Shown: positions 1 through 55,418 of the stretch, in pieces
Position numbering within the stretch: the first letter of the stretch is position 1
Layout: each line of letters begins with the position of its first letter
From: a virus
Lineage: Duplodnaviria > Heunggongvirae > Uroviricota > Caudoviricetes
Reading direction: 5' to 3' (one strand)
Length of the DNA stretch: 64,000 bases
Virus record (IMG/VR): IMGVR_UViG_2878480445_000013
The notes under the pieces: generated by a model
Seen by the model: only the letters and a program-made list of their open reading frames with translations
The model's database searches: none
What the model was told of the DNA's origin: nothing
Made by a program: the position numbers and the translations under genes

Positions 1-547
1 TTTGTCCCCTCTTTCTTGTTGAGGTGACCAATCAATACAACTGCACAGTCATACGCAGATGCCCACATTCCAAGACGCTGCATCAGCTTTCTCGCCCTGC
101 CTGCAATCTGAAGGTCAGAATCACTCCCCAGATATGCCTGTATCGGGTCAATGACCACCAACCTTGGACGAAATTGTATAATCGCCTTTCTGATACGTTC
201 ATCATCCAGCGTCAAGCCACTGTTCATTTCTTCATTTATAAAAGCTACATTCCTACAATCTGCTCCACACGTTTCCAATCTCGGCTTGATGGTGTCTGAA
301 GCATCATCTTCCGAACACTGGTAAATAACTTTCTGGGGCATTCCAATAGACTTTCCATCCGGCATAGTTCCACCCTTTGATAATTCTGCAATCAGATTCA
401 TCATCATGGTAGACTTTCCGTCGCCGGGGTCGCCTTGCAGCAATGTGATCTTCCCGACTGCAATGAACGGATACCACAGCCAGCGAACAGCTGTTGCTTC
501 TACATCACTATATAATGTGAAAATTCCTGTTTCCTCTTTGCCTGTCA
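1..547 (-). CDS. AAA_25/RecA-like P-loop ATPase (RepA-like), 5' part; gene continues past window start
   Basis: Minus-strand translation from ATG at 547 reads MTGKEETGIFTLYSDVEATAVRWLWYPFIAVGKITLLQGDPGDGKSTMMMNLIAELSKGG, with Walker A GDPGDGKST. The frame stays open to position 1. It is absent from the ORF track because it is truncated. Confidence 0.6.
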
Positions 548-615
548 TTCCCTTTACCTTTCATTTGCAGTCTTTTCCTACATTTATATTATAAGAGCTG
601 CATGACATTTTGACT

Positions 616-663
616 GCTACCTATCATGTAGCACGTTCCATGTTTTGCTACATAGTAGGTAGC
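616..663. promoter_or_regulatory. Operator-like inverted repeat between the divergent ATPase and XRE genes
   Basis: Arms GCTACCTATCATGTAGCA (616-633) and TGCTACATAGTAGGTAGC (646-663) are near-perfect reverse complements with a 12-bp spacer. This position is typical of a CI/Cro-type switch operator. Confidence 0.5.
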
Positions 664-800: not shown

Positions 801-1142
801 ATGGCTATTGACTATGAAGCCTTGGGCAAGCGTATTTCAAATGCCCGCAAACAAATTGGTATCACACAGGAGGCGCTCGGTGAACAACTTAACATGACCC
901 GTAAACACATCAGTGTTATCGAAACTGCTATCAACCGTCCCAGCCTGGATACCCTGGTTGATATCGCAAATGCACTGAATGTATCTGCAGATGACCTTCT
1001 CGTAGACAGTCTGACGCACTCGGCATCTACTGCAGATTCTGAGATTCACCGTCTGCTTTTAGACTGCAATACAACGGAACAGGAAATTCTTACCCGCACC
1101 GTAAAGGAACTGAAAGCAATTTTGTATGGTTTAGGAATCTGA
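801..1142 (+). CDS. XRE-family HTH transcriptional regulator (Cro/CI-like)
   Basis: ORF MAIDYEALGKRISNARKQIGITQEALGEQLNMTRKHISVIETAINRPSLDTLVDIANALNVSADDLLV is a classic HTH_3 helix-turn-helix. An AGGAGG RBS sits 6 nt upstream. Confidence 0.8.
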   Translation: MAIDYEALGKRISNARKQIGITQEALGEQLNMTRKHISVIETAINRPSLDTLVDIANALNVSADDLLVDSLTHSASTADSEIHRLLLDCNTTEQEILTRTVKELKAILYGLGI

Positions 1143-1306
1143 TTTTGTAACTCATTGACCACATAACAAAAGGCCCGCATAAGCCACAGCTGCACTTCGG
1201 CTCACTCCGGGGTGCTGTCTGTGGTTCATGCGGGCAGGAGTAAAAAAGAAGCCCGCCAGCGTTCCATGTAGGATTCTACACAGTGCGCCAGCGGGCAGTC
1301 ATTTAC

Positions 1307-2983: not shown

Positions 2984-5280
2984 TTATACAGCCTGCTCTC
3001 GTTTTGCTTTACTTCTCAGATATCTTCGGTACTGAACCGTATTGTCATACACCCGGTACGGGGCATCGACCAGCGTCACCAGCCCATCAAGGCTGCATTT
3101 CTTAAATCCCAGAAAACTGGTCAGTGTCCTCTGATTTCCACAGGTGGGCAGCGTTACACCAAAATTCGTTTCATAAAGTACGATATCGCCTTTCACCGTT
3201 CCCTTTTTCATAAAGGCGCAGTAGATACCTTTTTCAAAATGGAGCAGATCCGGTGCTTCCGCGATCCTCTCCGGCGTTATCTTCAATCGTCCTCGTTTCA
3301 GACTGGCGACCGCACCATCAACCGGCTCTCCATCCACATCCCGAAACAGGCTGCCCTGCACATCCAGCCCGTTCACCTTCAGCGGCATACCGGCGGCATT
3401 CTGTTCCGGCAGTTCTTTCAGGCAGGCAATGAAAAGGTCAAAATTTTTCTTCATAACCATAAGGGTTCCCTGTTCCTGGCTCAGCGTTTCTTTTTCCTTT
3501 CGGAAACTCTCAATTCGCTGCCGGATATCCTTTGCCAGACTTGCATAGGCTTCGATTTCAGACCCTTCTTCATAGTCAGCATGGTAGAAGCTCGTACCAA
3601 TATCATTTCCCGTCAGCCCATTTCGGATATCACTGTCAATCTCGTCCAATGTGATGTTGCCCTCCGCCAGTGATTCATTCAGTTCCAAATTCTGCTCCAG
3701 CACCGCATCCCGCATGGCCGTAACCTGACGGCCGATCGTCTCCTGCAGTTTTTCTTCCAGCTCCTTGATCTGGGCCTCCAGCGTTTCCAGTCTTTCCAAC
3801 GATACGCTGTTTCCTTTCATCTGCTGATACATCTGTTCACAGGCTTTATGAAAAAGTGTGCTGATTTCCGAAGCTTCATGGTTTTTCTCGTAATCCCGTT
3901 TCAGGCGGTACAGCATTTCCATAAAACTCTGTTCCAAGGCACATTCATGGATGCTTTCCGAAGGGCATCTTTCATTGGCTGCTTTTCTCTCGGCATCCGA
4001 CAATCTCCCGTGTTTTTCCCTGCAGTACAGCTTCTGATCCGGTGTGCCATTCTGTCTGGCTTTTCGCCCTCACGCTTTCCCATCTTCTGTTTACACCGCC
4101 ACACGGGATAAGCATATGCGTATTTTTCAAGGTAGATATCCATATCGCCACCAGTTGCTGCAAGGCTTCGGTCATCCGTGTACCCGGTTGCCACACCTGT
4201 ATAGGTCACACGGAAGAATCCCTCACCGCATTCTTTTCCGGCTCTTTCTCCATGTTCAAGAACCGCACCGCAGACCAGATTTCCAAATGGCGAGCCGGTG
4301 TATCCTCTCTTCTTCTTTTGAGCCGGTACCGAATCTCCAACCTTGCTGGGCTTTTCATAAAGCATCGTCTGAGCCTTGTCCCATGTACTGCGGTCAATGA
4401 TGCCAACATGATGGTTTTCTACATAATAGCGAGGTGCCTCACCTTTGTTGATCGTGGACCGATGGGTCAGGAAATCCTTTGTGATGGTCTTCTGCATCTC
4501 AATGTCACCCACATATTTTTCATTCCGAAGAACTGTGAGCACAGAACTTGCCGACCAGTTCTTTTTGTTCACCGTCTTTCTGCCAAGTTCATTCAGCTCC
4601 TTTGCAATACGGTTTGCCGTCTGTCCACATACATACCGTTCAAAAATATAACGAACCGTTTTTGCCTGTTCCGGATTGATCACCCATTCACCATTTTCAC
4701 CCTTGTCATACCCAAGCATCCGGTTCAGATCAATCTTCGGCTTTCCAGCCTGGAAATTTTTCTGGATCGACCAGCGGATATTGTCCGAAATGGACCGGCT
4801 CTCATCCTGCGCCAGTGCGGAAAGAATAGTCAAGATCAATTCACCGGTCGCATCCAGCGTATCGATGTTCTCTTTTTCAAAGTAAACACCAACCGGAGGA
4901 TTCTGCTGCCGAAGCTGGCGGACACAATTCAGGGTGTCCACCGTGTTTCGGGCAAATCGTGAAATCGACTTGGTCACGATATAATCCAGCTTTCCGTCCA
5001 GGGCATCTGCCATCATGCGGTTGAAATCCTCACGATGTTCCCTGCTGGTTCCTGATTTTGCCTCATCTGCGTAAATGCCTGCAAATCTCCATCCGGGTTT
5101 GTTCGTGATCAGATTTGTGTAAAACGCTTTCTGTGTGGTGTAGGAAGTCTGCTGGCTTTCATCCCCTGTGGAGACTCGACAGTATGCCGCCACACGGATA
5201 TTGCTCTGCACCTTCAGCTGACCACCGTTATGCACCGACCGCTTTGTAGCCGGTATCACTTCTACTTTTTTCTGTGTCAT
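2984..5280 (-). CDS. large serine recombinase 1 (resolvase + recombinase + zinc-ribbon domains), frame break near 3975-4000
   Basis: The 3901..5280 ORF has the resolvase catalytic region VAAYCRVSTGDESQQTSYTTQ...KSISRFARNTVDTL. The 2984..4003 ORF continues the C-terminal coiled-coil (ALEQSFMEMLYRLKRDYEKNHE), homologous to recombinase 2 residues AIEQGFMEMLYRLKRDYEENKE. The two parts are in different frames. Confidence 0.7.
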
Positions 5281-5299
5281 ATACTCTCCTCCGTTTCCT

Positions 5300-7291
5300 T
5301 CATATCTTTTTTCCGTTCCGACGCTTTCTATACTCTACCTGAACCGATTCTCCAAGGATCTCTGCTTCATTTTCCGCAAACTTTGGTTTTCCATCTTTGT
5401 CGTATACCCGATAATCCTTGAAGTCCTTTATAGTCCTTCTGGCTCCGAAAGCAGTAAATTCCATTCCGTAAATGGTCCGGTAATGGATCACATCTCCGTC
5501 CACTCTGCCAGATTCAATATTTACGGCATACATTTCCCGGCTGAAGGTTAGCATATCCGGTGTACTCAAGAACACACCCGATTCCGTCCACTGCGGTTCT
5601 TTATCATCCAGACCATGCACCACCAGCTTCTGTCCATAGCGGTTTTGCTCCGGCAGGGCCAGCAGTTCCTCCAGAAAATATTCGTACCTCTTTTTCAGGA
5701 TGATGCCGCCTTCACTGCTTTCTTCCAAAATGTGAAGTTCGTTTTCCAGTTCTTCTTTCCGCTTCAGAATATCCTTCAGCAGTTCATTGTACATTGCCTC
5801 GGCACTTCCAGCCGCAGGTGTGTAAACACCATCCACACGCTGTTGATCCATCCCCTCCATAATAGCGTCCATCTGAATGCTCCCATCCCGAATGGACTCC
5901 TGTAAGCTCTCCTGCAGGAAAACCCGTTCCTGCTCTGCCATTTTCTTCTGTGCTTCCATCTGCTTTTTCATAAGGCGTTTACATTCCTGTTCCAGCTTCT
6001 GAAGCAGTTCCCTGAGTTCCAAAATCCGTCCTGAATGGTCTTCCGGCTCCCTCTGGCATTCACGGTATTTGACCGCCAGCTCCGACTGCTCTTTGTTTTC
6101 CTCGTAATCCCGTTTCAAGCGGTAAAGCATCTCCATAAAGCCTTGTTCAATAGCGACCTCATAAAGCTCCTCTGTGCAGTCTTTATCCGAACAGCGCATC
6201 TTCCCAACACCATAAAGCGGAAGTCCCTGCCGTTCCTTTGTATCTTCAATGGACTCTGCATCCACCCAGTATGCGGCAATCTTTCTCCTCTTGTGGACCA
6301 TCGTCTTTCCGCACGCTGGACACGAAAGGTTTACATAGCAGATATTGAGAGGATCACGGCTTAGTAGCGGCGGCCTCCGTTTCATTTCACTTTGCACGAT
6401 CAACCAGGTTGCCCGGTCGACGATCGGTGCGTGGTGGTCCCTGATGTAATACTTTGGAAGCTGCCCTCTGTTCGGAACCGCCTTATGGGAAAGAAAATTG
6501 CTGGTCACATATTTCTGCATCTCCAAATCGCCCACATACTTCTCATTTAGGATCACATTCGAGAAGCTGCTGGGGTTCCAGTCCGTGCCAGATACCGTTT
6601 TCCAGCCTCGCTCGTTCATCTCGTTAATGATCGTTGCACGGCCGGCTCCGCAGGCATATCTCCGAAAAAGGTAACGCACCGGTTCCGCCTGCTCTTCATT
6701 GATGATCCATTCTCCGTTTTCCCCTTTGTCATATCCGATCATCCGGCTTAGATGAACCATCGGCTTCCCTTCCTGGAACCGCTTCTGATAAGACCAGTGG
6801 ATGTTATCCGAAATGGAATGGCTTTCTTCCTGAGCAAGTGCGGAGTAAATGGTCAGGATCACCTCACTGGTGGAATCCAGAGTGTTGATGTTTTCCTTTT
6901 CAAAAAAGATTCCCACAGGAGGTGTCAGCTGTTTCAGCTGTCTTGCGCAGTCGAGGGTATCCACGGTATTCCTTGCGAATCTCGATATGGATTTTGTGAC
7001 TATTAAATCGATTTTCCCATTTCTCGCATCCTCCAGCATCTGGTTGAACTCATCCCTATGCAGGCGGCTTGTTCCGGTGATTCCCTCATCTGCATAAATT
7101 CCTGCGAATGTCCAGCCCGGATGCCGCTGTATCATATCCGTGTAGAATGCCTTCTGGGTCCGGTAGGACGTTTTCTGTTCATCTGAATCTGTGGACACTC
7201 TGCAGTAAGCTGCCACCCTTAACCCCTTCGGCTTTTCCTGGGCAGCCTTTTGAGCCGCCGCTTCCTTTATCAATCGTAAAACCTCTGACAT
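5300..7291 (-). CDS. large serine recombinase 2 (intact, 663 aa)
   Basis: Contains LRVAAYCRVSTDSDEQKTSYRTQ, KSISRFARNTVDTL, a recombinase domain, and a CPACG zinc ribbon with a C-terminal coiled-coil. Confidence 0.85.
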   Translation of the reverse strand: MSEVLRLIKEAAAQKAAQEKPKGLRVAAYCRVSTDSDEQKTSYRTQKAFYTDMIQRHPGWTFAGIYADEGITGTSRLHRDEFNQMLEDARNGKIDLIVTKSISRFARNTVDTLDCARQLKQLTPPVGIFFEKENINTLDSTSEVILTIYSALAQEESHSISDNIHWSYQKRFQEGKPMVHLSRMIGYDKGENGEWIINEEQAEPVRYLFRRYACGAGRATIINEMNERGWKTVSGTDWNPSSFSNVILNEKYVGDLEMQKYVTSNFLSHKAVPNRGQLPKYYIRDHHAPIVDRATWLIVQSEMKRRPPLLSRDPLNICYVNLSCPACGKTMVHKRRKIAAYWVDAESIEDTKERQGLPLYGVGKMRCSDKDCTEELYEVAIEQGFMEMLYRLKRDYEENKEQSELAVKYRECQREPEDHSGRILELRELLQKLEQECKRLMKKQMEAQKKMAEQERVFLQESLQESIRDGSIQMDAIMEGMDQQRVDGVYTPAAGSAEAMYNELLKDILKRKEELENELHILEESSEGGIILKKRYEYFLEELLALPEQNRYGQKLVVHGLDDKEPQWTESGVFLSTPDMLTFSREMYAVNIESGRVDGDVIHYRTIYGMEFTAFGARRTIKDFKDYRVYDKDGKPKFAENEAEILGESVQVEYRKRRNGKKI

Positions 7292-7297
7292 TTTTCC

Positions 7298-9726
7298 TCA
7301 CCCTTTCTTTACATATTTTTTCCGGTAGCAGTTATCCCGCATGGCCTGTCCGTCAAAATAAGATGCCGTATACCGGTAATCTTCTATATTACTGTACATG
7401 ACAACCTCTGTCCTTGTGTCATCATACCAGTGAACCGTATAGTTCAACGGGGAATGGACCGTAATAGAAAGGACAAATGCCTTGCAGTAATCTGAGGTCA
7501 CTCCATTCAAAAACTGCACCACGCCATCCCTTCCTTTCGGAAGTTCCTTCATCCATTCAATTGCCCGTTCTCTTCTCTTGTGGTCATTCTCCAAATCCTC
7601 CCAGTATCCTTCCAGATACTCCAACCGTTCTTCCAGATGCTTTTTCTCATCCATATCCCGGTCAAGTTTTTCTTTCAACCTTCTGATTTTCTCAGCATTG
7701 CTCTGAATGACTGCCTCGTCGATGCTCTCATCTCCCAGCAGTTTGCGTCTGGTCTGCATCACATCGTTCTGGCTTTCCAGAAGACGCAGTTTTTTCCCGC
7801 TGCTTTCCATTCCAATCTGAAGGGTGGCAATCTGCCGTTTGTAAAAAGCACGGTCCCGTTCCATAAAGTCGGTATGCTGGATGTTTTCCAGCCTTTTGAT
7901 CATCTGTGGAACAAAGTCATCAGCTTCCTTTGTAAAACCTTCAAACTGCTCTCCGTAACGGCCGCTCATGATGTCCGCCACTTCCACATTATCGTGGATG
8001 GGCTGTGCGCTCAGCCGGAACCGCTCAATGATCGCCTTGCGGAAAGCCCTCACAATCTGCTCTTCATAAACTCTCTCGGTGTGGCAGATTCTCTTTCCAT
8101 TGTAGATTTCCGCTGTTGGACAAAACCAGACCGGATAGTACTTGGAATTTCTCACACGGAAAAACCTGCCGCATTCCCCACACAAAATCCTTCCTGAGAA
8201 TGGCTTTGATCCTTTCTTTACTCCCTTCTCTTTTTTGGCGGCATTGGCTCTGCGGATTTCCTGAACAGTTTCAAACAGTTCTTCGTCAATGATCGCCGGA
8301 TGGTGGTTCTTCACCAATACTGCGGAAGTTCTCCATTATTCCGCTGGATGTTATGGTTCAGAAAGTCCACGGTGTATTTTTTCTGGATCAGGACAGCTCC
8401 TGTATATCGTTCCCTTTGTATCATCTGAGAAATAATCCTTCCAGTCCATCCTTCTTCCAGATCACTGTTCAGCTGTCCTTTCTTTGAGTTCTTTTTTCTG
8501 GCTTTGACCGCCACGGTCTCAGGAGCTGGAATCCGGTCATAATTCAAACCTCTGGCAACATCTGTATAGGCAGTACCCTCTGCCACTTCCTGAAAAATCC
8601 GGCGCACGATTTTTGCTTCTTCTTCCACAATTTCGATATCCCTATACTGATATCCACTTTCTGTCGTGACCATCTTTCCATTGTAGCGATACCCATATAT
8701 GACCATGTTCTTTACCTCACCTCTCGGATAGCGCATCTTATTTCCAAGATTGATGTTTCTGGAAATACTCCGGCTTTCTTCCTGGGCAATCGCCGCAAGT
8801 GTCGTTAGAATAAAATCACTGGTCGGATCAGCTGTGTCCAGATTTTCTTTCTCAAAAAGGATCGTCACATTGTTGTCATGCAAAGTATTAAGGGCGGTCA
8901 TAAAATCCGCCGTATTTCTGGAGAAACGGGAAATCGACTTGCATACAATACGGTCTATTTTCCCTTCCCTGCAGTGCCGCAGAAGTCTTTTGAATCCAAC
9001 ACGCTTATCCTTGACCGTTCCTGAAATTCCATAATCGGAGTAAACCCCGATTGGATTCCAGTCTGGATTGTTTTCGATCAGCTGATGAAAATACCGTTCC
9101 TGCGTTTCGTAGGAGTTTTCCTGGTCACTGGAATCAGTGGAAACTCGAATGTAAGCGGCTACGTTCAGATGCCCTTCCTTTTCCTTTGTCCTGCGAAAAG
9201 AAGCTGTGGAAATAAATTCATTTTCTTCTTTCATTGCTTCTGCCTGTGGCTGGAAGACCGCCTCGAACTCGCTTCTCAACCCACCGACCCGTTCCATAAC
9301 AGGAACTGCCTGCTGCATTTTCTCCTTTGCAGCCAACGCCTTCTGGATCAGGGAAGCAATTCCGGCATCTCCGTTTTCCTTGGATTCGGATAACGGCAAC
9401 TTTGTCTTTTTCTCTTTTTGTTGGGTAGACATCTCTTGGCGCACAACGCTTTCCTGCAAAAAAGAAGATGCAGCCGCCTTCTTTTCAGAGAGGTCAGCTG
9501 CACCACTTTTTTCTTTCACCGCTTCATAGGATTTCTTTTCCTGCACAGGCATCTGAGTCACAGATGTGGTTTCCGGCAGAACTGATTCGCCCTGTCCGGT
9601 CGCTGCCATCAACATCTTTGAAAGCTCGGCTGCTGAAGCATTCGGGCGGCTTTTCTGTTTCTGCTGTACGGTACTTTTGACCGTTGCGCTCTGCAGTTTC
9701 TGCAAAAAATCATTTGCTGTACTCAT
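7298..9726 (-). CDS. large serine recombinase 3, single frame break at 8311-8317; possible internal start near 9234
   Basis: The 8311..9726 ORF has NVAAYIRVSTDSSDQENSYETQ...KSISRFSRNTADFM and ends ...GELPQYW*. The 7298..8317 ORF begins VKNHHPAIIDEELF. Together they give the canonical LPQYYVxNHHxxIID motif if one base is restored. The first 164 residues are a low-complexity K/E/Q/S-rich extension. Confidence 0.7.
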
Positions 9727-12768: not shown

Positions 12769-15417
12769 TTATTTTCCGAATGCACGGATTACAGATCCTA
12801 CCACACATTCTCCGATTCTGGCGTAGCCTTCCGTACTGCAATGGAGCTGGTCGCCATTAAACGGATACGGCGAAGATCCCGTATATTTTTCCAGAATAAT
12901 GCTGCCATTCCGCTTCTGATAATAGGACTGTCCGTTCACATACCGCTGTGGTACACTTCCAACCACCCTGCCGGATGCATCTAGCTGATATTTGGCATAC
13001 TGCTCGTTCACAGCATTCTTCTGTGCGCCAAAGACACTCCAAGTCCTGCGGTTGATCCCACTCTCATGCCAGAGATCACAGACTGCCACATTATTTACCT
13101 GCGCCACAGCCTTGATCGTATCTGACAGTTTTTCCATTGTCTGGCCAGTTCCGGTCGGATATTCTTCGTATCCGTCTGCATCCACATACGGATATTTGCC
13201 CGCACAATGCGGCGTTGCCACCAGCACATGACAGAGCAGATTCCCGGCATCCTCCAGTTCTTCATAGATGCGGTTTAAAAGATACTGGATTCGACCACAG
13301 ATAGTCTCCTTTTCCGGGTAGCAGTCTCCTACCGAACCGAGTACCGTTGCTCTTTCGTTGTAGGCCGGCAGCACAATGATCAGGCTGACACCTTCTACGT
13401 CAGCGGCCATCAGCGGCCGCAGGACACCATTCTTATCCGTTTCTGCATTGTACGTTCCATCCAGACCGTTGTCACCGTCCGTCATCCGAAGGATTCCGAT
13501 ACCGCCCTTTGCATGGGTAGCAACATTCATACCGAGCAATTCTTCCAGCTTCTTCTGCCATTTTCCAGCCGCCGTAATGCTGTCACCAATGACCAGAGCC
13601 TTCTTCCCTTTCCAGCTACCGGACAGTTCCGCATATCCGGCAGCAACAGCTTTCTCTGCGGTATCAGATGCCACTGCATGATCTGCCTTTTTCGCTGTCT
13701 CCGCTTTTTCAGCATGATCCGCTTTTACTGCCACTTCCGCTTTTTCTGTAAGAATGGCGTGTGTCGCATTCTTCACAGCGGAGGCACGTTCCGTTATGCT
13801 GCTGTGACTGAGTGCCTCAATCTCCTCATTGGAAAGCCCAGTCACGTTCAGCACCCACATGGTCACAACAAAGGAAGTGTAATTGGAACCCGTCAACTGC
13901 ACCGCAAAATTCAGATTATCCTTTCCACCAGCATATTCGTAAACCAGATTCATTTGAAACGGAAGCGTTGCTTTGTTCAGTGTTCCACACGGCACACGTT
14001 TTGCCCAGTTTGGAATACCCGGTTCGATGATGCCAATGGATACCTCTCCCAGCTGTGTGTCATCCGTTTCTACAGATTCCACCCTGCCAAAGACAAGATA
14101 CTTCCCGGCAGCCAGACCACTCAGCCGTACTCCGCCGAACACGCCCCAGTCTTCGTTGCGGGTCACGGCAGCCTTTGCCCACGCATACATTGTGTCCTTT
14201 TCCTGAAACTTGCTGGAGAAAGGAATCATTTCAGAAAAGACAGGGCATCCATATGCTACATTGCCCAGCATTTCCCGTGTCTGGTCTGAAATGCCGGTTC
14301 TGTCTGCATACGGAACGCTCATGACTTTTCCGGCAATGCCCCATGTGTCATAATACTGAAGGATGCTGTCCTCAACCGGACTGCTGCTGATCAGTGACAG
14401 AACTTTCTGCAGTTCATCATCACTCTGTCCCGTCACATCCAGTAGGACACATCTGCCGTCACACTCCACTACAGCATCATTCCTTGCAACACACGGAGAA
14501 ATATCCAGCCTGTATGCATTCTCCAGAATCTCTCCGAAAAATACCACATAGATTTCATTTCCGTGAGCAACTCTTACCACCTTCGTCACATGAGTATTCA
14601 GATTTGCACCTTTGGAATCATACTGGTAGCAGCTCACACCGGCACAGGAGCCGGAAATTTCCCGGATCTTGGAGATGAACAGATATTTTCGGAATTTGCC
14701 CATCAGCATATTGGTAAAGCGATGGTAGAACTGACCGTAATCCGTAGTTCCCGTGATCCGGTAATCCAGAAATTCTCCTGCTTCACATTTAGCCCCCAGC
14801 AGAGCCGGCATCGCAGCCTTTGGGAACACCTCACCCAGATTACCATTGGAACCGGCAAGTGCCAGCTTTGCTCCGGTGATCCCATTCTCCACAGCCAGAC
14901 TGTACTGCCCACGGATTGCTTCACCAGCGGACGGATACACCGTTCCATCCTGCCCAACCCGGACATCAACCAGTTCCGCCGCATAATCTGCCTTAACGTC
15001 TGTAGAAGCTGTCACGTTTGCATCCAGCCGCTTGTTCATCTGTTCCACAGCTGTGTTCATGGCATCTTCTGTTTTCTGCATGGCAGACTGTGCATCGGAT
15101 ACTTTGGTGTTTACCCGGCTCTCTGCTTCCGATACTTCTTTGCTCATGGATGCTTTCGTTTCCGAAAGATCCTTGTGCATTCCTTCCACATCTTCTGCAA
15201 CATCCGTTTCCAGTCTGTACATCTGGGCGTTGAAATGACTGCACAGGCTCCAATAATCCGTATCGGACAGCACTGTACCTGCAGGGACTGGCTTTCTGGA
15301 AATATAACCATCCCCACTTTCCGCGTCCAGAACGATTGTCAGTTCCTCATATTCCTTTTTCTGATTCCATACGCCATCGTGTTTCGGAATGATCCGCTTA
15401 CCCTTAAAAGTTCCCAT
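12769..15417 (-). CDS. tail fibre / receptor-binding protein with C-terminal SGNH (GDSL-like) esterase domain, 882 aa
   Basis: The N-terminal 170 aa is 60-65% identical to the 17916..19226 protein. An ADHAEKAETAKKADHA linker precedes KKALVIGDSITAAGKW (SGNH block I), with further SGNH blocks downstream. Confidence 0.7.
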   Translation of the reverse strand: MGTFKGKRIIPKHDGVWNQKKEYEELTIVLDAESGDGYISRKPVPAGTVLSDTDYWSLCSHFNAQMYRLETDVAEDVEGMHKDLSETKASMSKEVSEAESRVNTKVSDAQSAMQKTEDAMNTAVEQMNKRLDANVTASTDVKADYAAELVDVRVGQDGTVYPSAGEAIRGQYSLAVENGITGAKLALAGSNGNLGEVFPKAAMPALLGAKCEAGEFLDYRITGTTDYGQFYHRFTNMLMGKFRKYLFISKIREISGSCAGVSCYQYDSKGANLNTHVTKVVRVAHGNEIYVVFFGEILENAYRLDISPCVARNDAVVECDGRCVLLDVTGQSDDELQKVLSLISSSPVEDSILQYYDTWGIAGKVMSVPYADRTGISDQTREMLGNVAYGCPVFSEMIPFSSKFQEKDTMYAWAKAAVTRNEDWGVFGGVRLSGLAAGKYLVFGRVESVETDDTQLGEVSIGIIEPGIPNWAKRVPCGTLNKATLPFQMNLVYEYAGGKDNLNFAVQLTGSNYTSFVVTMWVLNVTGLSNEEIEALSHSSITERASAVKNATHAILTEKAEVAVKADHAEKAETAKKADHAVASDTAEKAVAAGYAELSGSWKGKKALVIGDSITAAGKWQKKLEELLGMNVATHAKGGIGILRMTDGDNGLDGTYNAETDKNGVLRPLMAADVEGVSLIIVLPAYNERATVLGSVGDCYPEKETICGRIQYLLNRIYEELEDAGNLLCHVLVATPHCAGKYPYVDADGYEEYPTGTGQTMEKLSDTIKAVAQVNNVAVCDLWHESGINRRTWSVFGAQKNAVNEQYAKYQLDASGRVVGSVPQRYVNGQSYYQKRNGSIILEKYTGSSPYPFNGDQLHCSTEGYARIGECVVGSVIRAFGK

Positions 15418-15578
15418 AAAAAATCTCCTTCCTGCCGGTGTTTATCCGGCTGTCCTCATAACAGTTTCGGATAGTCACCCGGTCAGGGAGGAGTTCTTTT
15501 CTTATGGCGGTCAGGTTTTACCCCCCCTCGAACATTTTTTCGATATACCGCTTTTTCTTCATTTTAGTGTCCTTTCTC

Positions 15579-17931
15579 TTACTGTTCCAAAATTCCAAGT
15601 TCGATCATCTTCTTATACAGCATAGTTCCGATGACCGTCTTGGTTGCAGCTGTGTAATGAACGGAATCTGCCAACAGTGTCTGCGGAACCTGTCCCTGTT
15701 TGATACGCTCGATGTCCGCATCCGTGGGATCAAGGCCTGCATCGTCCAGACCATAGCAGCTGATGACCGTCTTGCCATCCGTGTCATACACCGGATGCGC
15801 CAGATACTCTCTGAGACTGACGAAACGTCTGCCAAACGCCTGCTTCATCTGCTTTTCATATTCTGCACGCTGGCTTTCCGTTCCAGACGAAAGGCCCAGC
15901 ACCAGATATTCCTTTCCCTTGAAGTGCTAATCATCTGCTGATGCATCCGGATCAGGTCTGTAAGGTCTGCATATCCTCCGTTCTGGCCTATGAAAAGGAT
16001 CATCACCTCGGAAGCCTGATTGTGCAGCCGGTCAAATGCAGTACGGACCGCAGTCGGACGCTTGATTGTGACAGCTTCACCAGCGACAGAACGTGTAAAC
16101 GTCCAGATGCCGTTGGTATCTGCATAGTTTGTGCCAGTCCAGCGGAGTGTGCCTTCTACCTCGCCAATCTTGACCGGATTGACGTGAGCTCCACCCTGCA
16201 AAAGCGGTGTTACCTTGTAGCCTTCTTCTGTCAGGATACCGGAATCCGTTTTTCGCACAGCAAGCGTCACTGGCTCACAAGCAGCCGGAATGGTAATGTT
16301 GTTGACCAGCATCACATCGGCTCCCTGACGGGCAGCAATCGTTCTGGCATTCTCGCCACCGGTACCGCCGTTGTAGACCGGAATCCCGGACAGCTTCTGA
16401 AGAGTGGACGTCCATCCACCTCCTGCGGTAAGAGAATCGCCCCAACAGACAATACCCGTCAGCACAGTCGCTTCTCCAGATTTTTTATTCGTGCTTCCTG
16501 CCCATTCAGTCTTTCTTCTGCCTTCTCCGCACCGGATTTCAGCTGTTCCAACGAAGCATCCACCTCTGCAAAGCGTTCTTTCAGCTTTCCGTGGTTCACA
16601 TAGGAACACCAGTAGGTGTATTTACTCTGGAAGAAGGTTGCCATATCTTCATTGGAAAAACTGTCATCCGCAAAAGCATAATCCTGCCAGTACCATTTCG
16701 GAGTCCATACAACAGGCTCCTCTCCGGAATACTTCCGGGTGTTCCAGATGCCAAACCAGCTGGCACTGAATGTTCCTGCTTCTTTCTGTACTCGGATTAC
16801 TTCCAGTATTTCCTGCGTAAAAGCAAACCGCCAGACATACATCTTTCGTTTTCCGTAAATGGTACGCTTCAGCACTGGTGAAACATTGATTGGATTCGTG
16901 AACTTACCATCCAGATAATAAGCAATCAACAGCCGGTTATCATACGCACCACCCTGAACACCTTCCGGACAGTTCTCGAATTCCTCGACCTCACAGAGAT
17001 AACAATACTGATAGCCTTCTTCAAACTTCCGGAGCATCTCGTCAAAGGACATCATGCCGCTCAGCTGCTTGGCATATCCCTGGTTATGCGGCTGATCGGA
17101 TTCTTTGCTCAGACCGATGCTGAACTCGACCACCTGGTCAAAACCTGTACCGCTGATCTTTGCACTTGCCCGGTTGCCGGTACTCTGGAATCCAAAACGG
17201 TAGGCATATGGATACTTCTCCGGGTACGCCAGCGTATCCAGCCCAAACGAATAACGCACTCCCGGATGATTCAGCAGTTCCTCCGCCGGGACGAGGAAGA
17301 AGTTATCTGCAATGACCGCACTCCCTGCGCTTCCGGCATACCCGGCTTCCTCTGCACTCTCAGCCTCCTTTGCATGGGTAGCACTTCCGGCTTCGTTAGC
17401 AAATGTCGCTGTTTCTGCATGGTCTGCACGGCTTATAAACCGTGACCGGGCAATGAAGGACTGCTGGTTTACAATAGAGGTTGTCAACTGGATCTGTCCC
17501 AGATTTTCTACGATTTTGTCATTCAGAAAACTGCCTGCGAAAACGATATACAGCGGTTTCCCCAGTGCAATGACTTTTTCCACCATCTCCTGTTCCAGAG
17601 GGTAAAATATCCGGGAACCGACCGTAACGGATGTGGTAATGATCGGGGTGACCGTGGATGCCCAGCTTCCAATACTGTTGACATAAAAGCGAACTTTCAC
17701 TTCTGCCCCTTCAAGCTCCTTGTTTCCTTCCGGTCCGATGCCCTCCAGAGTCAGTTCCAAATACAGCCGGTCCAGCCGTTTCAGCTTCATCATCTGTTCA
17801 TAGGAAATGCAGTAAGCAAAATGCAGAGATGACCATTGGGGCTTTTCATACTGTGTCACATAGGCAGCATGGTCAAACTTGAATACCACATTCTGACCAT
17901 CCACCTCTGCTCCCGTCACACCTTTTGACAA
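15579..17931 (-). CDS. tail fibre protein 2 with C-terminal GDSL/SGNH hydrolase domain; two frame breaks
   Basis: ORF 16459..17931 (490 aa) has an ADHAETATFANEAGSATHAKEAESAEEAGYAGSAG linker like the 882-aa fibre. It ends ...EARIKNLEKRLC* inside a T6/A6 homopolymer at 16471-16476. One extra A gives ...EARIKKSGEATVLTGIVCWGDSLTAGGGW (GDSL block I) in the 15845..16609 ORF. A second break near 15850-15900 joins the 15579..15902 ORF, which is the SGNH C-terminus. Confidence 0.6.
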
Positions 17932-19226
17932 TGCGCCATTTGTGTTGTCCTCGGCCCAAAATAATAAGATACCGGCAGCCTTGGTGCTGCCATTGCATCG
18001 ATCAGTTTCAAACGCTCAGCCAGGCTGTCATATTCCACACCTGCAGAGTCTGTATGACAGTCCGTCACCTCTTTCAGGATTGCCTCGTGCGCCCGCAAAA
18101 GCTGTGGTAGGGATGCCTCTCCGGCTCTGGCATTGATGATTTCCTGCTCCAGAATCCGCAGACAGTCATGCTCAGAAACATATTTCCATCCAAGATCTTT
18201 GACAGCTGTTGTTTCATACGCATACACATAAAACTCACTGTCCTGTGCAGCAGCTTTTTCCCTGCGGATACAGAAATAGAGTTTTCTGGATGCCGTGTAC
18301 TTCGTCACAAACTCTTCCCAGCGGCTTTCGGAAAAATCCAGATCAAACGCTGCCAGATAGCCGTTTTCCTCATTCAGCTTTACTGCACTGAGGGGCACAC
18401 AGCCAACTTTTCCATTATCACTGCCCCATGCATTCGGGGAGTTCGTAATGATAGCCTGTCCTTCATACGGCACCTGATTACTCAGAATAACGATCCGGAA
18501 CGACTTTTCTTTGCACTCTTCATAGGAACCGAAGAAACCAAGAAAGGTTCCCGTGTAACCAGAAACATGATGAACCAGGCAGCGGACAGCTGCACCTTCC
18601 ATACTATTCTGAACAGTATTCTCATTCCGGTATGCAGTTCCCATTTCTACCGGAACGATTTTTCGTAGCAGGCCTGCTGTAATACTGCGCATGGCTTCCC
18701 CGGCACTCGGATAGGTAGTCCCTTCACTGTCCACTCTGGTATCCACCAGTTCTGCGGCATAGTCCGCCTTGCTGTCCGTGGATGCCGTCACATTTGCATC
18801 CAGACGTTTATTCATCTGGGCAACTGCCGCATCCATGCCATTCTGAGTACTCTGCATTGCTTTTGTCGCCGCGTTGACATTTGACGTTACACGATTCTCC
18901 GTTTCGGACAGTTCTTCCGCCATTTTCTGATGAGTCTGCGAAAGTTCCTCACTCATCGCAGACTTCGTATTGGCAAGGTCTGTGTGCATTCCTTCCACAT
19001 CTTCTGCCACATCCGTTTCCAGACGGTGCATCTGGGCATTGAAATGGCTGCACCTTGCCCAGTAGTGCTCGTTTGTGAGTAGCGTACCGGCGGGAACATC
19101 ATACCGGCTGATATAGCCATCCCCCGTTTCCGGGTCAAGAACGATCATCAGCGGTTCATAACTTCTCGCCTTGTCCCAGTCTCCCTCATGCCGGGGAATG
19201 ACTCTCTTTCCAAGAAATTCTCCCAT
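17916..19226 (-). CDS. tail fibre N-terminal module protein (paralog of the N-terminus of the 12769..15417 protein)
   Basis: MGEFLGKRVIPRHEGDWDKARSYEPLMIVLDPETGDGYISRYDVPAGT...CSHFNAQMHRLETDVAEDVEGMH...AQMNKRLDANVTASTD..YPSAGEAMR aligns with the 882-aa protein N-terminus. ATG at 19226. Confidence 0.65.
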   Translation of the reverse strand: MGEFLGKRVIPRHEGDWDKARSYEPLMIVLDPETGDGYISRYDVPAGTLLTNEHYWARCSHFNAQMHRLETDVAEDVEGMHTDLANTKSAMSEELSQTHQKMAEELSETENRVTSNVNAATKAMQSTQNGMDAAVAQMNKRLDANVTASTDSKADYAAELVDTRVDSEGTTYPSAGEAMRSITAGLLRKIVPVEMGTAYRNENTVQNSMEGAAVRCLVHHVSGYTGTFLGFFGSYEECKEKSFRIVILSNQVPYEGQAIITNSPNAWGSDNGKVGCVPLSAVKLNEENGYLAAFDLDFSESRWEEFVTKYTASRKLYFCIRREKAAAQDSEFYVYAYETTAVKDLGWKYVSEHDCLRILEQEIINARAGEASLPQLLRAHEAILKEVTDCHTDSAGVEYDSLAERLKLIDAMAAPRLPVSYYFGPRTTQMAHCQKV

Positions 19227-19255
19227 TGTATCTCCTTCCTGCCGGATCTCCGGCA

Positions 19256-20017
19256 TCATTGTTCTTTTTCTTCTCCATACTGGATGACCAGTTGTGATTC
19301 TTCATCCAAAGAAAACACCAGACCCAGATCATCCCAGGACTGAAAATTCAGATAGCCGTTTCCGTCAATGGAGCTGTTGACCATCTTGTCATACACATCT
19401 GCTGCCACCTTTTCCATCGTACTGGAATAAGATCCTTTCATCAGCCCCAGTTCATCGTCCGACTCCATGACGAGATATCCATCCTCGGAAATATAGAAGC
19501 CCTGAATGCCAGACATCGTTGCATCCACGCACTGCTTATAAGTCAGCGTTGCGATCTTCCGGTTCGTGATCGCCGCCCGTGCCACATTCAACGTCAGGTT
19601 GAACATTCCCAGCACATCCCCCTCATCAGAAAGAAGGTAAATGTCGATGGGAAAACGACCATATACTTCCGTCATAAAAGAAGTGACGGTCAGGATGATC
19701 GTACCGGAATCCACAAACACAAGCTCCGGTCTGGATTCGCTGGAATACTGGAACACCGCTCCATCTGGCCTTGTACCCGAATAACTGACGATGGTACCTT
19801 CCTGCACAACATATTCCACCGAATTCTGATATAGTCGGCATCTGACTTTTCGTGCCTGATTGTCAAACTGTTTGACTGGGATCTGGACAGGGATCAGATT
19901 TTCCGTGAAAGACAGTTCAATCTCCTGAAAGATCCGGACTGGTTTCACTGTTGTTACTGCCGTCTCCTGTGCTTCCTGTGTCTGTATTTCCACTATTTGT
20001 TTCCTCCTTACTGCCAT
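19256..20017 (-). CDS. tail/baseplate-associated structural protein (hypothetical)
   Basis: Intact 253-aa ORF between Tal and the fibre genes. GGAGGAGG RBS before the ATG at 20017. An alternative GTG start at about 19993 follows AAGGAGG. Confidence 0.5.
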   Translation of the reverse strand: MAVRRKQIVEIQTQEAQETAVTTVKPVRIFQEIELSFTENLIPVQIPVKQFDNQARKVRCRLYQNSVEYVVQEGTIVSYSGTRPDGAVFQYSSESRPELVFVDSGTIILTVTSFMTEVYGRFPIDIYLLSDEGDVLGMFNLTLNVARAAITNRKIATLTYKQCVDATMSGIQGFYISEDGYLVMESDDELGLMKGSYSSTMEKVAADVYDKMVNSSIDGNGYLNFQSWDDLGLVFSLDEESQLVIQYGEEKEQ

Positions 20018-49397: not shown

Positions 49398-51522
49398 TTA
49401 TTCTTCCAGACCTGCGCACCATGCGATGCCGGCCAGAACAAAAAATGCGTTGGCTAAGCATATGCCGTTGCCCCAGATACGGTACTCTGCCGAATCCGTA
49501 TACGGGTCAGCCAGCCATTTTCGGATCTGCTTCTCCGTTTTCGGCTTCTTGGCATGGGTCACGATCTTACGGTGCGTTTCAAACACCTCCGTCCAGAACG
49601 CCAGCTCTTCTTCGGTCGGATCTTCCGTTCCGAGATCTCTGCACCACCAGTCCGGGAAACCCTGCAGTCTGGCACACTCGGTCGGTGTCAAACGGCGGAC
49701 GGTATAAGTCACAGGTGCGGGCTGTGCTTCCGGGTTGTCGATGACCAGACGGTCATTAAAAGCATCCTGCCCGTTGAAGCCGCTGGGATGCGCCCCTGTT
49801 GCCACCGTTCCCATGACACCCTCGTTCAGATGCGGTGCCGGTGCGATGGTGGTCGGGTCTTTGTAATCCCGTGCCATCAGGGTCGGTGCGACTTCTTTTG
49901 CCACCTGCATATAGGAGCCGGTGGTCATGGCATACACATCCTCCGGTGCGCAGACTGCATGACGGTCAGTGGCATCCAGTGTAAAGCAGACATCCTCATT
50001 GACGCCATCGCCCTGCGGACCGTTCTCATCCTTGCGGCCGATCATGTTGCCCTGCAAGACGAAGGTCTGCTGCTTCATCCCTAGCTCTGCTGCAAGTGCT
50101 GCTGACTTCTCTCCCAGATCCCGGACTTCATCCCTCTGATTCTGTGTAAAAGCAACCGGCTCTACTACACAGATGCCGCCCTGGTTACAGGTCGGGTCTC
50201 CACCACTGCGGTCAAGAGTCCGGGATGTATCTGCTTCATAAAAACCGCTATGCGGATTATCGGACATCATGGAATGACTGGCTTTGGAGCAGACACCGTA
50301 GCATTTCGGAACGAACAGCGTCTGGTCGTTGTTGCAGCCGAGGGTGGCTGACTTTTCTTCCTGCCAGATGGCTCCCTTGCCGCCGCCCTCACATCCGGAG
50401 CGGATCTTCAATGTGACTGCCGGGGAGTTCTCAACATCTTTCACCGGGCTTTCCACCGACTTTTCAACACCATCCATGACCAGTGGAACATTGCCGCCAC
50501 CCGTACCACACCGGCTGGTCAGGGTCTGCACCTTGCCATCCTCGGAAATCTTCACCCGGCTGTCTGCAGGATGGTTTTCCAAAGCAATAGCGGCAGGCAC
50601 AACACCAGCCCGGAGAGTTGGTGACCGTTCCTCTTCATACCCGATGCTTCTTGCGTTGGCAGAGTGTTCCGTGCAGAAACCGGCTGCTTCCAGAACACAC
50701 GGAGGATGGTGTGCTTCTGCTCGAAGCGTTGATGTCGCTTCCTTTGTCACATCCATTCTCTCCCCACCCTGATCATTCAGGCAGATTCTTCCTGTGCCGC
50801 CTGCCTTTCCAGTGCTGCTTTCAACACAGGTGGCAGCTCTTTGCCACGCACGGAAGCTCTCCGCAGAATACCGAGACACGCCTCGGACTCAAATAATACT
50901 TTTGGGGCACTCTGTCTGCAAAATCTGCGACAAGGAAGATTCGTTTTCTACGCTGGGGCACGCCCCACCACTGTGCATCAAGGACTCGATACGCGACACT
51001 CCATCCGTCTCCCAAATAGTAGTCAGCATCCGGCCATCCCTTTTTCTCAGGCGCAGGCACCTGGGCGGACGGTTCTTTAACACCGATGACGGCTTCGAGA
51101 ACTGCCTTGAAGTCCTGTCCTTTGTTTGAGGAGAAGGCCCCTGGCACATTCTCCCACACGATAAATCTTGGTTTTTCTCCATTGGTCTTACACCTCATTT
51201 CCTTCACGATTCGGATTGCTTCGTAAAACAGGCTGGACCGTGAACCATCCAGACCGTCCCGCTTACCGGCGATAGACATATCCTGACAGGGACTTCCAAA
51301 AGTAATGATGTCAACAGGCGGCAAGTCCGCACCGCTGATGGCAGACACATCACCATAGTGCCTCACCCACGGCAGGCGCTTGGTCGTGACTCGGATGGCA
51401 AAGGGCTCCACCTCGCTGCTCCACAGCGGAGTGATCTGCCCGGTCAAAAGTCCACCCAACGGGAAACCCCCGGAACCATCAAAGAGGCTGCCGAGTGTCA
51501 GCTGTTTATTCTCCATCGGCAT
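49398..51522 (-). CDS. DNA (cytosine-5)-methyltransferase, long TRD; at least two frame breaks near 50800-50900
   Basis: ORF 50821..51522 has motif I LTLGSLFDGSGGF, motif IV GSPCQDMS, ENV and QRRKRIFLVA. The third frame continues YYLSPR-CLGILRRASVRGKELPPVLKAALE. ORF 49398..50879 ends with motif X TVRRLTPTECARLQGFPDWW. Confidence 0.75.
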
Positions 51523-52801
51523 CCTCGCTTTCCGGCTCGAAGGTTGCCACTTCCTCGAACTTCAGCTTCTGACCGTCGCGGATAACAAACACATCATCGT
51601 AGTGGCCTTCGCTGTGTTCGATGTACCGCTTCACGATAACATCCACGAACTTCGGGTCCAGCTCGATGCCCCGGCACACACGGTCTGTTTCCTCACAGGC
51701 GATCAGTGTCGAGCCACTGCCGAGGAACGGATCAAGCACGATGCCGTTGGTCATAGTGGAATTGCGGATCGGATAGCTCATCAGACCGATGGGCTTCATG
51801 GTCGGATGGTCCTTGTTGGACTTCGGCCGGTCATACTCCCATATGGTCGTCTGCTTCCGGTCGGAATACCACTGGTGCTTCCCCTTCTGCTTCCAGCCGT
51901 AAAGACACGGTTCGTGCTGCCACTGGTAAGGACTGCGGCCCAGCACCAGCGCATTCTTCTTCCAGATACAGCACCCGGACAGGTAGAACCCGGCATCCTT
52001 GAATGCCTTTCTAAAGTTCAGCCCTTCCGTATCTGCATGGAAGATGTAGATGGAACCGTCGTCTGCCAGATGGCCGTGCATCTGCTGGAACGCTGCCAGA
52101 AGGAACTGGTAGAATTCCGAATCTCCCATGTTGTCATTCATGATCTTACCGGCAGTCTCTTCCACATCCACGTTATAAGGGGGATCGGAAAGGACCAGAT
52201 TTGCCTTGGTTCCGTCCATCAGGGTGTCGTAGCATTCCGCTTTGGTAGAATCCCCGCACAGAACGATGTGCTTTCCCAGATGCCAGAGATCACCCTCTTT
52301 GGAGAAGCATGGCTGCTTCAGCTCGGATTCCACATCGAAGTCATCTTCCTTGACCTCTTTGCTGTGGACCTTGTTGAACAGCGTCTCGATCTCAGGCGGG
52401 TCAAAGCCTGTCTTACCGAGGTCGAAGTTGGAATCTTCGATGTCCTTGAGCAGGTCAGCCAGCAGAGAATCATCCCATGCACCCGTGATCTTGTTGAGTG
52501 CAATGTTCAGGGCTTTCTCTCTGGTCTTGTCGATGTCCACCACCGCACAAGGCACTTCTGTGTATCCCAGTTCCATTGCAACAGTCAGTCTCTGATGGCC
52601 GCCGATGATCGTCATGTCGGCATTGACCACCAAAGGATCTGCGAAGCCGAACTCCGTGATGGAGTTCTTGATTTTCTTGTACTCTTTATCCCCCGGCTTC
52701 AACTTTTTCCGGGGATTGTATGCAGCCGGCTTGAGTACGGACACCGGCAGCATCTTTAGTTCAGCAGTCGCTTCATGTAAGCCCTCCCGTTTTAGATTCA
52801 C
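51506..52801 (-). CDS. ParB-like nuclease domain fused to beta-class N6-adenine/N4-cytosine DNA methyltransferase (DPPY)
   Basis: N-terminus LPVSVLKPAAYNPRK...IIGGHQRLTVAMELG is a ParB/Srx fold. The C-terminus has LVLSDPPYNVDV and an FLGSGSTLIACE SAM-binding motif. This architecture is common in phages and conjugative elements as a protective orphan methylase. Confidence 0.8.
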   Translation of the reverse strand: MNLKREGLHEATAELKMLPVSVLKPAAYNPRKKLKPGDKEYKKIKNSITEFGFADPLVVNADMTIIGGHQRLTVAMELGYTEVPCAVVDIDKTREKALNIALNKITGAWDDSLLADLLKDIEDSNFDLGKTGFDPPEIETLFNKVHSKEVKEDDFDVESELKQPCFSKEGDLWHLGKHIVLCGDSTKAECYDTLMDGTKANLVLSDPPYNVDVEETAGKIMNDNMGDSEFYQFLLAAFQQMHGHLADDGSIYIFHADTEGLNFRKAFKDAGFYLSGCCIWKKNALVLGRSPYQWQHEPCLYGWKQKGKHQWYSDRKQTTIWEYDRPKSNKDHPTMKPIGLMSYPIRNSTMTNGIVLDPFLGSGSTLIACEETDRVCRGIELDPKFVDVIVKRYIEHSEGHYDDVFVIRDGQKLKFEEVATFEPESEDADGE

Positions 52802-55387: not shown

Positions 55388-55418
55388 AGAGCTTATCCTC
55401 GGATAGGCTCTTTTTTAT
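55388..55418 (+). terminator. rho-independent terminator of the HigBA operon (hairpin + T6), convergent with the metK end
   Basis: GAGAGCTTATCCTCGGATAGGCTCTTTTTTATTT. Confidence 0.55.

Follow-up and report, generated by a model that had tools for sequence, protein, structure and literature searches.

How many fibre proteins does a phage tail-tip locus encode when its open reading frames (ORFs) suggest four or five, and what lies between them? The question is raised by a 64,000-nt stretch of DNA (the window, below) from the IMG/VR record IMGVR_UViG_2878480445_000013 (Caudoviricetes), in which an intact 882-amino acid (aa) ORF is preceded by ORFs of 447, 490, 254, and 107 aa. The locus belongs to a temperate phage with a long tail, present as a prophage in a Clostridia isolate from the human gut, and makes up its receptor-binding module. 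An earlier note had read these ORFs as an 882-aa fibre and a separate three-gene fibre set, with possible slippage at a run of six adenines (A6).

Our comparisons point to a different organization. Instead of four or five genes, the module holds two that encode predicted fibres: fibre A (1216 or 1227 aa) and fibre B (882 aa). The explanation that best accounts for the locus as a whole – and that we consider highly probable – is that it holds two esterase-tipped fibre genes, that fibre A has been split by deletions in the assembly, and that a poly-G element lies between the two.

Two fibre genes in place of five ORFs

We found that the claimed three-gene set (447 aa, 490 aa, and a GDSL hydrolase) is a single gene. 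In a three-frame translation, the 447-, 490-, 254-, and 107-aa ORFs run consecutively, with a −1 shift at each junction. Re-inserting three bases (A at 17951, C at 16470, and C at 15926) restored one 1216-aa ORF, identical to the protein encoded by L001, which is one of six other contigs that carry the same phage (L001–L003 and L005–L007; 0–49 mismatches over up to 22.6 kb). L001–L003 cover the entire fibre A gene, which is one ORF of 1216 or 1227 aa; fibre A is also called at 1216 aa in L005, and L006 and L007 contain its 3′ part only.

Homologues provide a second line of evidence. More than 60 database clusters of 1216–1234 aa cover all four ORF pieces in one chain, and a protein from a Blautia faecis metagenome-assembled genome (MAG) is among the homologues of this length. 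The homologues are continuous across the three junctions (GPKDNTNG, NLEKPTVLTG, and MISHFKGKEY), and the truncated 447-aa product is unique to the window's assembly.

A G run of variable length precedes the second fibre gene

Between the fibre genes we observed a poly-G tract, the sole G/C run of at least 7 nt in the window. A G7–G12 run is present 61–155 nt upstream of the second fibre gene in all ~55 tandem or partial loci examined, which fall into at least six sequence types. We found no comparable G run upstream of the first fibre genes in the tandem loci examined, nor any such run in the ~25 single-fibre loci (8–14 kb; ~35 in all) that were checked directly.

The length of the run varies among close relatives. 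Loci of the window's type (n = 27) comprised one G7, seven G8, 13 G9, five G10, and one G11, and a second type (n = 15) spanned G7–G12. Loci with identical ±600-nt flanks differed by up to 5 nt (G12/G7/G11, G11/G9, G10/G12, and G9/G8), which implies that the run mutates much faster than its surroundings.

The sequence around the run has a recurring layout. Six mutually unalignable sequence types have a leader ORF of 14–46 codons with a strong Shine-Dalgarno sequence of its own, ended by the G run. Two of the three leader frames stop 3–22 nt past the run in these six types, and the third extends through a CU-rich segment or up to the AUG of the fibre gene. Across types, this segment is predicted to be the 5′ arm of a hairpin, and the ribosome-binding site of the second fibre gene, often with its AUG, the 3′ arm. 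In the window the base of the predicted hairpin takes in the fibre B AUG, and the long-frame leader stop (15485–15483) shares two bases with the 3′ end of the 5′ arm.

Hairpin z-scores by type were −6.6, −5.6, −3.8, −3.2, −2.0, and −1.9. The initiation region had a predicted unpaired fraction of 0.12–0.32 in six of eight types, as compared with an average of ~0.5 and a minimum of 0.24 among 56 control gene starts. In four types, the fibre B start was less accessible than every one of these controls. A role of the hairpin as a terminator was considered and rejected: a U-run follows the stem in some types only, and a terminator scan did not flag it. No Rfam family matches the intergenic element.

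Two loci bear on the boundaries of the element. L042 has a wholly different leader peptide (MLENRVFGQAGGG..., ~60–105) and upstream fibre, with the same poly-G run, hairpin, and fibre B – an arrangement in which the border of the exchanged fibre module falls at the G run or just ahead of it. A MAG contig (L021) ends in a G12 run (6893–6904) directly after the first fibre gene; assemblies seem to break at this element, and the number of tandem loci on short contigs is probably an underestimate.

Slippage at the G run may gate fibre B

We tentatively propose that the poly-G run, leader ORF, and hairpin form a device that gates fibre B expression, a reading to which we give nearly an even chance. 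The number of Gs would set the reading frame of the leader, and only one of the three frames would carry ribosomes through the arm that masks the fibre B ribosome-binding site. Changes in G number through slippage on the DNA, and possibly on the RNA or ribosome as well, would yield virions with or without fibre B. Repeat slippage, as invoked in the earlier note, may be relevant to this locus, but at the poly-G run between the fibre genes rather than at A6. The wider proposition is that widespread gut Clostridia prophages control their second fibre by such a self-encoded contingency device, and that their lysogens release a mixture of one- and two-fibre virions as a hedge on host range; this we regard as possible and hold with some reserve.

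Several observations weigh against a switch. The long frame is found in only ~25% of loci, with no enrichment over one third, and in 1 of 15 loci of the L014 type. Two types have a weak hairpin (z about −1.9 to −2.0). Within-type covariation was slight in RNAalifold, with one double compensatory change and little sequence variation to draw on, and covariation was counted within types only, MAFFT having misplaced the 5′ arms of the unalignable types. Assembly errors at long G runs may also add noise to the length counts.

The main alternative is fixed-ratio tuning via RNA or ribosome slippage. The poly-G run would then hold fibre B at a constant low level by slippage in transcription or at the ribosome, irrespective of the run's length in the genome or, in a second version, would be a recombination junction that bounds exchangeable fibre cassettes. 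Transcription can slip on runs of at least nine Gs, the leader frames are distributed near-randomly with no frame apparently selected, and in L042 a different upstream module is joined exactly at the leader. However, a pure junction would have no need of what six unrelated types all possess, namely a strongly Shine-Dalgarno-led leader ORF, two early stops, and a hairpin at the ribosome-binding site, and slippage at the DNA level is evident from the length differences between phages with identical flanks. We regard tuning or a junction as a real, if on balance doubtful, possibility.

The proposed switch recalls two kinds of known system. In MS2 (coat to replicase) and in ermC-type leader attenuators, translation of an upstream ORF through a hairpin arm frees a downstream ribosome-binding site. 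Translation would likewise open the masking hairpin here, but the gate would be a mutable homopolymer, as opposed to coat translation or antibiotic-induced stalling. In Fletchervirus phages of Campylobacter, Sorensen et al. (2021, Cell Rep 35:109214) reportedly described hypermutable polyG tracts inside the coding sequence of receptor-binding protein genes, where a direct frameshift changes the fibres that are made. We know of no group other than the Campylobacter phages for which phage-encoded repeat switching of receptor-binding proteins has been shown. Fletchervirus and the present phages have in common a phage-encoded poly-G tract at receptor-binding genes, variable in length within or between close relatives. 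The Fletchervirus tract is intragenic, whereas the one described here lies in a separate leader ORF, would act through a ribosome-binding-site hairpin, and belongs to temperate phages of gut Clostridia. The work on poly-G phase variation in Campylobacter phages is cited in PMC12823448 and PMC10877375. We found no description in the literature of a poly-G/leader/hairpin arrangement ahead of a second fibre gene, and the element is plausibly a new form of phage contingency switching.

Fibres A and B share an anchor and a linker

The shared N-terminal domain proposed in the earlier note was borne out: 114 of 180 residues are identical in the two fibres (63%, E 2e-73), with a single 11-residue gap. 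So was an 11-residue duplication within the 447-aa protein (MSEELSQTHQK / MAEELSETENR; 6/11 residues and 17/33 nt identical). The unit (xMSxELsxTxx) is present in one copy in fibre B, two in fibre A, and three in the relative P0318. The 11-residue difference is copy-number variation in a predicted coiled-coil stalk, the length of which varies in hendecad steps. We also recovered the common Ala/His-rich motif (18/37 residues; E 7e-5 without and 0.012 with composition correction).

The claim that the 882-aa protein is a fused version of the other set did not hold. We detected no similarity beyond the anchor, the 37-residue linker, and the GDS block, and the SGNH domains of the two fibres belong to different subfamilies. 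Profile–profile comparison of the middle domains of fibre A with those of fibre B found no significant relation; the sole weak signal linked one beta-sandwich domain of fibre B to the other (hhalign probability 16%).

The anchor is common to proteins of 725–1316 aa with differing distal parts. A megablast of the locus against GenBank phages gave no match, and a protein search with the anchor against the same phages returned distant crAss-like and Eggerthella phage matches only, with no cultured close relative. These distant relatives of the anchor (15238–15417 in the window) are 31–38% identical to it (records BK010471.1 and MW679025.1) and include the crAssphage putative tail protein KP06_gp67, a crAss-like 'tail fiber protein', and an SGNH/GDSL protein of Eggerthella phage LE1-1.

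Both fibres end in predicted SGNH esterases

Consistent with the earlier note, both fibres end in SGNH domains, and the Ser, Gly, Asn, and Asp-His motifs are complete on alignment. In the fibre A family (20 sequences, down to 34% identity) GDSLT, GGE, GQN, and D..H are invariant, and in a 16-sequence alignment of the fibre B family (down to 38% identity) G-x-S, G, N, D, and H are invariant.

Single-sequence searches of the PDB were nearly uninformative, and we used family profiles instead. For full-length fibre A, Pfam returned coiled-coil noise only; homologues at 30–50% identity match PF13472/PF00657, and the profile of the C-terminal family matched tail-spike structures 9sij/9sim and the SGNH esterases 9otv and 7c2a. 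An AlphaFold2 (AF2) model of the C-terminal domain (pLDDT 87.5) was matched best in Foldseek by 4k3u (Ape1; E 5.6e-5, probability 1.0) and also by 4rsh. A beta domain is inserted in its SGNH fold, as in Ape1.

As a single sequence, fibre B fell under the Pfam cut-off (PF13472, 21.2 bits vs 32.9). Its family profile matched 4q7q (1.2e-9) and 7bxd (2.7e-6), and it matched the Tal protein of Staphylococcus phage 80alpha weakly (E 0.0034). The AF2 model of fibre B had a pLDDT of 75.5 overall and >90 for residues 600–882, with low confidence in the Ala/His linker. Foldseek related its SGNH domain to 4q7q (5e-10), 3bzw (6.5e-9), CE2 esterases, CJ0610C, and PatB, and its middle region to tandem CBM22 modules. 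The SGNH domain is C-terminal in proteins of many lengths (532 cluster representatives at E <1e-10); the middle part is rare in the same database comparison.

On this evidence the two proteins are fibres of the receptor-binding type with a common N-terminal anchor, each tipped by a predicted SGNH esterase. The anchor would attach the two fibres, as trimers, to the baseplate, the middle domains may bind cell-wall glycans, and the predicted esterases may strip O-acetyl or similar acyl groups from wall polysaccharide or peptidoglycan, which would allow firm binding or penetration. A point against this architecture is that AF2 modelling was of single chains and gave low confidence for the anchor and linkers. 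The two predicted esterases are likely to have two different substrates, and the dual receptor specificity suggested in the earlier note is a reasonable reading of two SGNH-tipped fibres in a tail-tip position.

SGNH-tipped fibres have precedents in other phages. The G7C protein gp63.1 (E. coli) and Klebsiella prophage fibres (PMC13123978) likewise have a distal SGNH domain, together with modular, exchangeable N-terminal anchors. Fibres or spikes of this kind are common in temperate phages, and their SGNH domains are thought or shown to remove acetyl groups from surface polysaccharide, not to depolymerise it; esterase activity has been measured for the Klebsiella fibres (PMC13123978). The present phages differ in their Gram-positive gut Clostridia host, their two tandem fibres, and their different SGNH subfamilies, and we found no sequence similarity to the G7C and Klebsiella SGNH fibres beyond the fold. 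Another precedent is the 80alpha Tal (gp59; PDB 6v8i; PMC7048315), a tail-tip protein of a Gram-positive siphovirus that also has a C-terminal GDSL/SGNH domain. In 80alpha this domain is fused to the Tal hub, whereas here SGNH domains are found on two dedicated fibres with coiled-coil stalks and domains that resemble carbohydrate-binding modules (CBMs).

An alternative is that the SGNH domains do not modify receptors but serve wall penetration, de-O-acetylating peptidoglycan for the hydrolases of the tail and the phage. The top fold matches include the peptidoglycan O-acetylesterase Ape1 (4k3u), CJ0610C (8gr2), PatB, and OatA, and the 80alpha Tal SGNH domain is thought to act on the wall (PMC7048315). 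The inserted beta domain of fibre A mirrors the layout of Neisseria meningitidis Ape1, and in both it lies between blocks II and III; Ape1, however, is a periplasmic bacterial enzyme and no virion protein, with 13% identity to fibre A and a TM-score of ~0.34. CE2 carbohydrate esterases and generic lipases score similarly in the same searches, at identities of 10–16%, and substrate is not predictable from the SGNH fold. The fibre position and the CBM-like domains also resemble those of deacetylating receptor-binding proteins (G7C gp63.1 and the Klebsiella prophage proteins of PMC13123978). We consider a role restricted to wall penetration unlikely, though well within reach of the evidence.

The split of fibre A originates in the assembly

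The window is 100% identical to QUIO01000005.1 (GCA_003480145.1), and the exact 882-aa protein occurs on nine contigs. A base-by-base comparison with L001 and L003 identified no substitutions over 22,649 nt and seven deletion events; L002 differs from the window by 49 mismatches. All seven events are bases missing from the window, in homopolymers of 2–9 nt, with no insertions. L005–L007 cover four of the seven sites and lack the window's deletions over the parts that they cover. Deletions only, in homopolymers only, and without substitutions are the signature of homopolymer under-calling. As judged from these alignments, the split of fibre A is an assembly artefact, made up of three 1-nt homopolymer deletions peculiar to this assembly.

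Could the frameshifts instead be genuine, with fibre A a pseudogene of a decaying prophage and fibre B its sole working fibre? A prophage in a cultured isolate could be cryptic, several further phage genes are broken as well, and a split of the capsid gene is common to two other assemblies. Yet the contrast of seven deletion events with no substitution in 22.6 kb, each event a base loss in a homopolymer, is joined by the absence of a significant excess in fibre A (3/7 events in 3.65 of 22.6 kb, ~1.1 expected). The truncated fibre A product is seen in this assembly alone, and 1-nt homopolymer deletions abound in both assemblies with the capsid split. We therefore regard a decaying fibre A as very unlikely. 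Two points count against the artefact: the call comes from assembly-to-assembly comparison, so that real mutations in the isolate are possible, and the sequencing platform of GCA_003480145.1 is presumed; the accession, which we take to belong to the CGR project, was not found in the CGR supplements searched. Part of the CGR genomes were sequenced on ionProton (PMC6784896).

Other genes of the window also appear to be broken by 1-nt losses (34220, ~34765, 37634, ~27429, and 57514–57544). The gene for the major capsid protein is in two pieces (297 + 103 aa), probably through AACCGA>AACGA; the two other assemblies with the same split (DRR runs) are rich in 1-nt homopolymer deletions and unsuitable as references. 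The portal is 330 aa, and at 34220 a base is lost from CCC (CCC>CC). The tape measure has 1569 aa in the window as compared with 1969 aa in relatives, and a D5-type primase is split into 590 + 236 aa.

The tandem fibre pair is old and modular

The earlier note had also suggested a recent host-range switch through module duplication. We scanned for the anchor in one genome per species, using a 5-sequence anchor alignment, and found it in genome records labelled Blautia faecis, Faecalibacterium intestinale, and Lawsonibacter, as well as in Acetatifactor, Eisenbergiella, and Oscillospiraceae MAGs. Two anchors occur in tandem in 9 of 17 full-anchor genome loci and in ~30 viral or metagenome loci, and tandem pairs with anchors 35–50% identical to the window's recur across gut Clostridia prophages, those assigned to Blautia, Faecalibacterium, and Lawsonibacter among them. 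C-terminal GDSL domains were found in 8 of 10 fibres tested from these loci. The first fibre slot is exchanged as a module, with an 827-aa protein in L012 and a different leader in L042. Read from these sequences, the tandem pair is an old, conserved, and modular design among gut Clostridia prophages.

That the pair arose in this phage by recent duplication, as the mark of a new switch in host range, is highly improbable. The fibre genes are adjacent and have a 170-residue anchor in common, but the anchors are only 66% identical at the nucleotide level, and synonymous codons are largely randomised, with the same codon at only 53% of identical residues. The rest of fibre A is unrelated to the rest of fibre B, tandem pairs of the same layout recur in many divergent prophages, and the first slot is exchangeable.

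We noted two further features of related loci. A related prophage with a single 1316-aa chimeric fibre (8001–11951 in L008–L011; window equivalents ~15650 and ~13110) is present on 14 or more contigs, from gut samples of Hadza, Nepalese, and other origin. In the chimera, 2,538 bp are deleted in frame at a GCTG microhomology, which joins fibre A, just past its DSVH block, to the final ~110 residues of fibre B and takes out the poly-G element. The fibre loci of L014 (Faecalibacterium intestinale CLA-AA-H281) and L015 (Blautia faecis DFI.3.66) are 97.5% identical over 14.5 kb, with G11 and G12 runs, respectively; such likeness across two bacterial families could reflect broad host range, mislabelling, or contamination.

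The weakest of the readings considered, that the 490-aa and GDSL ORFs are joined by slippage at A6 – through a programmed −1 frameshift on A_AAA_AAT, formally an X_XXY_YYZ heptamer at which a −1 shift enters the GDSL frame, or through A6/A7 phase variation – has virtually no chance of being right. The tract is A6 in 7 of 7 loci compared, and the six other assemblies keep A6 with an uninterrupted ORF because they have CC where the window has C, 11 nt downstream. The break that the earlier note had placed in the tract is this CC>C change at 16470. Homologues are continuous through ...RIKNLEKPTVLTGIVCWGDS, and a slippery heptamer is found at none of the three break points. The A6/A7 idea is refuted on these sequence comparisons.

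Genomic setting of the fibre locus

Coordinates of the locus and its surroundings are given in Table 1. The tail-tip order is tape measure–Dit–Tal–230-aa protein–fibre A–fibre B–holin–endolysin, which places the fibres before the lysis genes. Downstream of fibre B, also on the minus strand, lie the holin, a LysM/SH3 protein, an amidase-glucosaminidase endolysin, and large serine recombinases. The C-terminal parts of both fibres matched PHROG families annotated as 'tail protein' or 'tail fiber protein'. The rest of the window is phage as well (terminase, portal, capsid, primase, and methylases), and close relatives of the prophage are assigned to Blautia. We also observed genes for an S-adenosylmethionine synthetase (55415–56482), a MazF/PemK-like toxin (59259–59828), and two DNA methylases (49398–52801), one of which is fused to a ParB-N domain.

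Table 1. Features of the fibre locus, its proteins, and the deletions in the window (window positions, or protein residues where stated).
Feature	Position	Strand	Remarks
Tape measure	27429-22720	-	tail module
Dit (phrog_33)	22710-21928	-	upstream of Tal
Tal/Prophage_tail (PF06605), 664 aa	21920-19917	-	separate from the fibre genes
230-253-aa protein	20017-19256	-	directly upstream of fibre A
Fibre A, 1216 aa	15579-19226	-	one gene, split in the window assembly; 1227 aa from upstream ATG at 19259
Fibre A ORF pieces (447, 490, 254, 107 aa)	19259-15579	-	
447-aa ORF (fibre A piece)	19259-17916	-	
Hendecad units, fibre A	18924-18989		coiled-coil stalk
Deletion 1	17951	-	AA>A; others CCGAAGGAC, window CCGAGGAC; break at GPK|DNTNG
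A6 tract	16481-16486	-	in frame in the intact gene; not the break point
Deletion 2	16470	-	CC>C; others GAGAAGCCGACT, window GAGAAGCGACT; break at NLEK|PTVLTG, just before the GDS motif
Deletion 3	15926	-	CC>C; others TTAGCCACTTC, window TTAGCACTTC; break in the SGNH domain at MIS|HFKGKEY
Leader ORF	15518-15562	-	own Shine-Dalgarno AGAAAGGA; window MKKKRYIEKMFEGG then stop; with G8 or G11 MKKKRYIEKMFEGGVKPDRHKKRTPP then stop
Poly-G tract	15521-15527	-	C7 on the + strand; G7 in the window, possibly under-called
Deletion at poly-G	15527		G9>G7; intergenic; sole two-base difference
Predicted hairpin	15414-15507	-	-43 kcal/mol, z -6.6
Hairpin 5′ arm, CU-rich	15493-15484	-	predicted to pair with ribosome-binding site GGAAGGAG, 15432-15425
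Fibre B, 882 aa	12769-15417	-	intact
Hendecad unit, fibre B	15145-15177		coiled-coil stalk
Deletion in holin	12360		AA>A; 139 -> 113 aa
Three consecutive large serine recombinase genes	2984-9726	-	prophage end; 809, 663, 765 aa in intact relatives
Deletion in recombinase	8317		TTT>TT; 809 -> 471+339 aa
Deletion in recombinase	4059		CCC>CC; 765 -> 459+312 aa
Fibre A anchor	residues 1-60		
Fibre A coiled coil with two hendecad units, ahead of unassigned domains	residues 91-112		
Fibre A Ala/His linker	residues ~601-632		followed by a further domain
Fibre A distal coiled coil	residues ~880-920		
Fibre A SGNH esterase (predicted)	residues ~925-1216		catalytic residues S932, G957, N1083, D1188, H1191
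Fibre B anchor	residues 1-60		
Fibre B long helix	residues 61-136		
Fibre B beta-sandwich domains	residues ~205-327, 396-524		CBM-like
Fibre B Ala/His helical linker	residues 545-599		
Fibre B SGNH esterase (predicted)	residues 600-882		catalytic residues G611/S613, G639, N687, D856, H859

Implications

The split fibre gene and the A6 slippage are a false lead that stems from homopolymer under-calling in one public genome. The same under-calling breaks the holin gene, two recombinase genes, and probably the capsid, portal, and tape-measure genes, and annotations drawn from this assembly need care. The closely related loci under Faecalibacterium and Blautia labels hint at a link with unusually broad host range.

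To our knowledge, almost nothing is known of receptors in this group of gut Firmicutes phages. Two predicted esterase-tipped fibres with a common anchor are a conserved design in prophages of these abundant gut bacteria. If the poly-G run does gate the second fibre, temperate gut phages would diversify their adsorption apparatus without a change in protein sequence.

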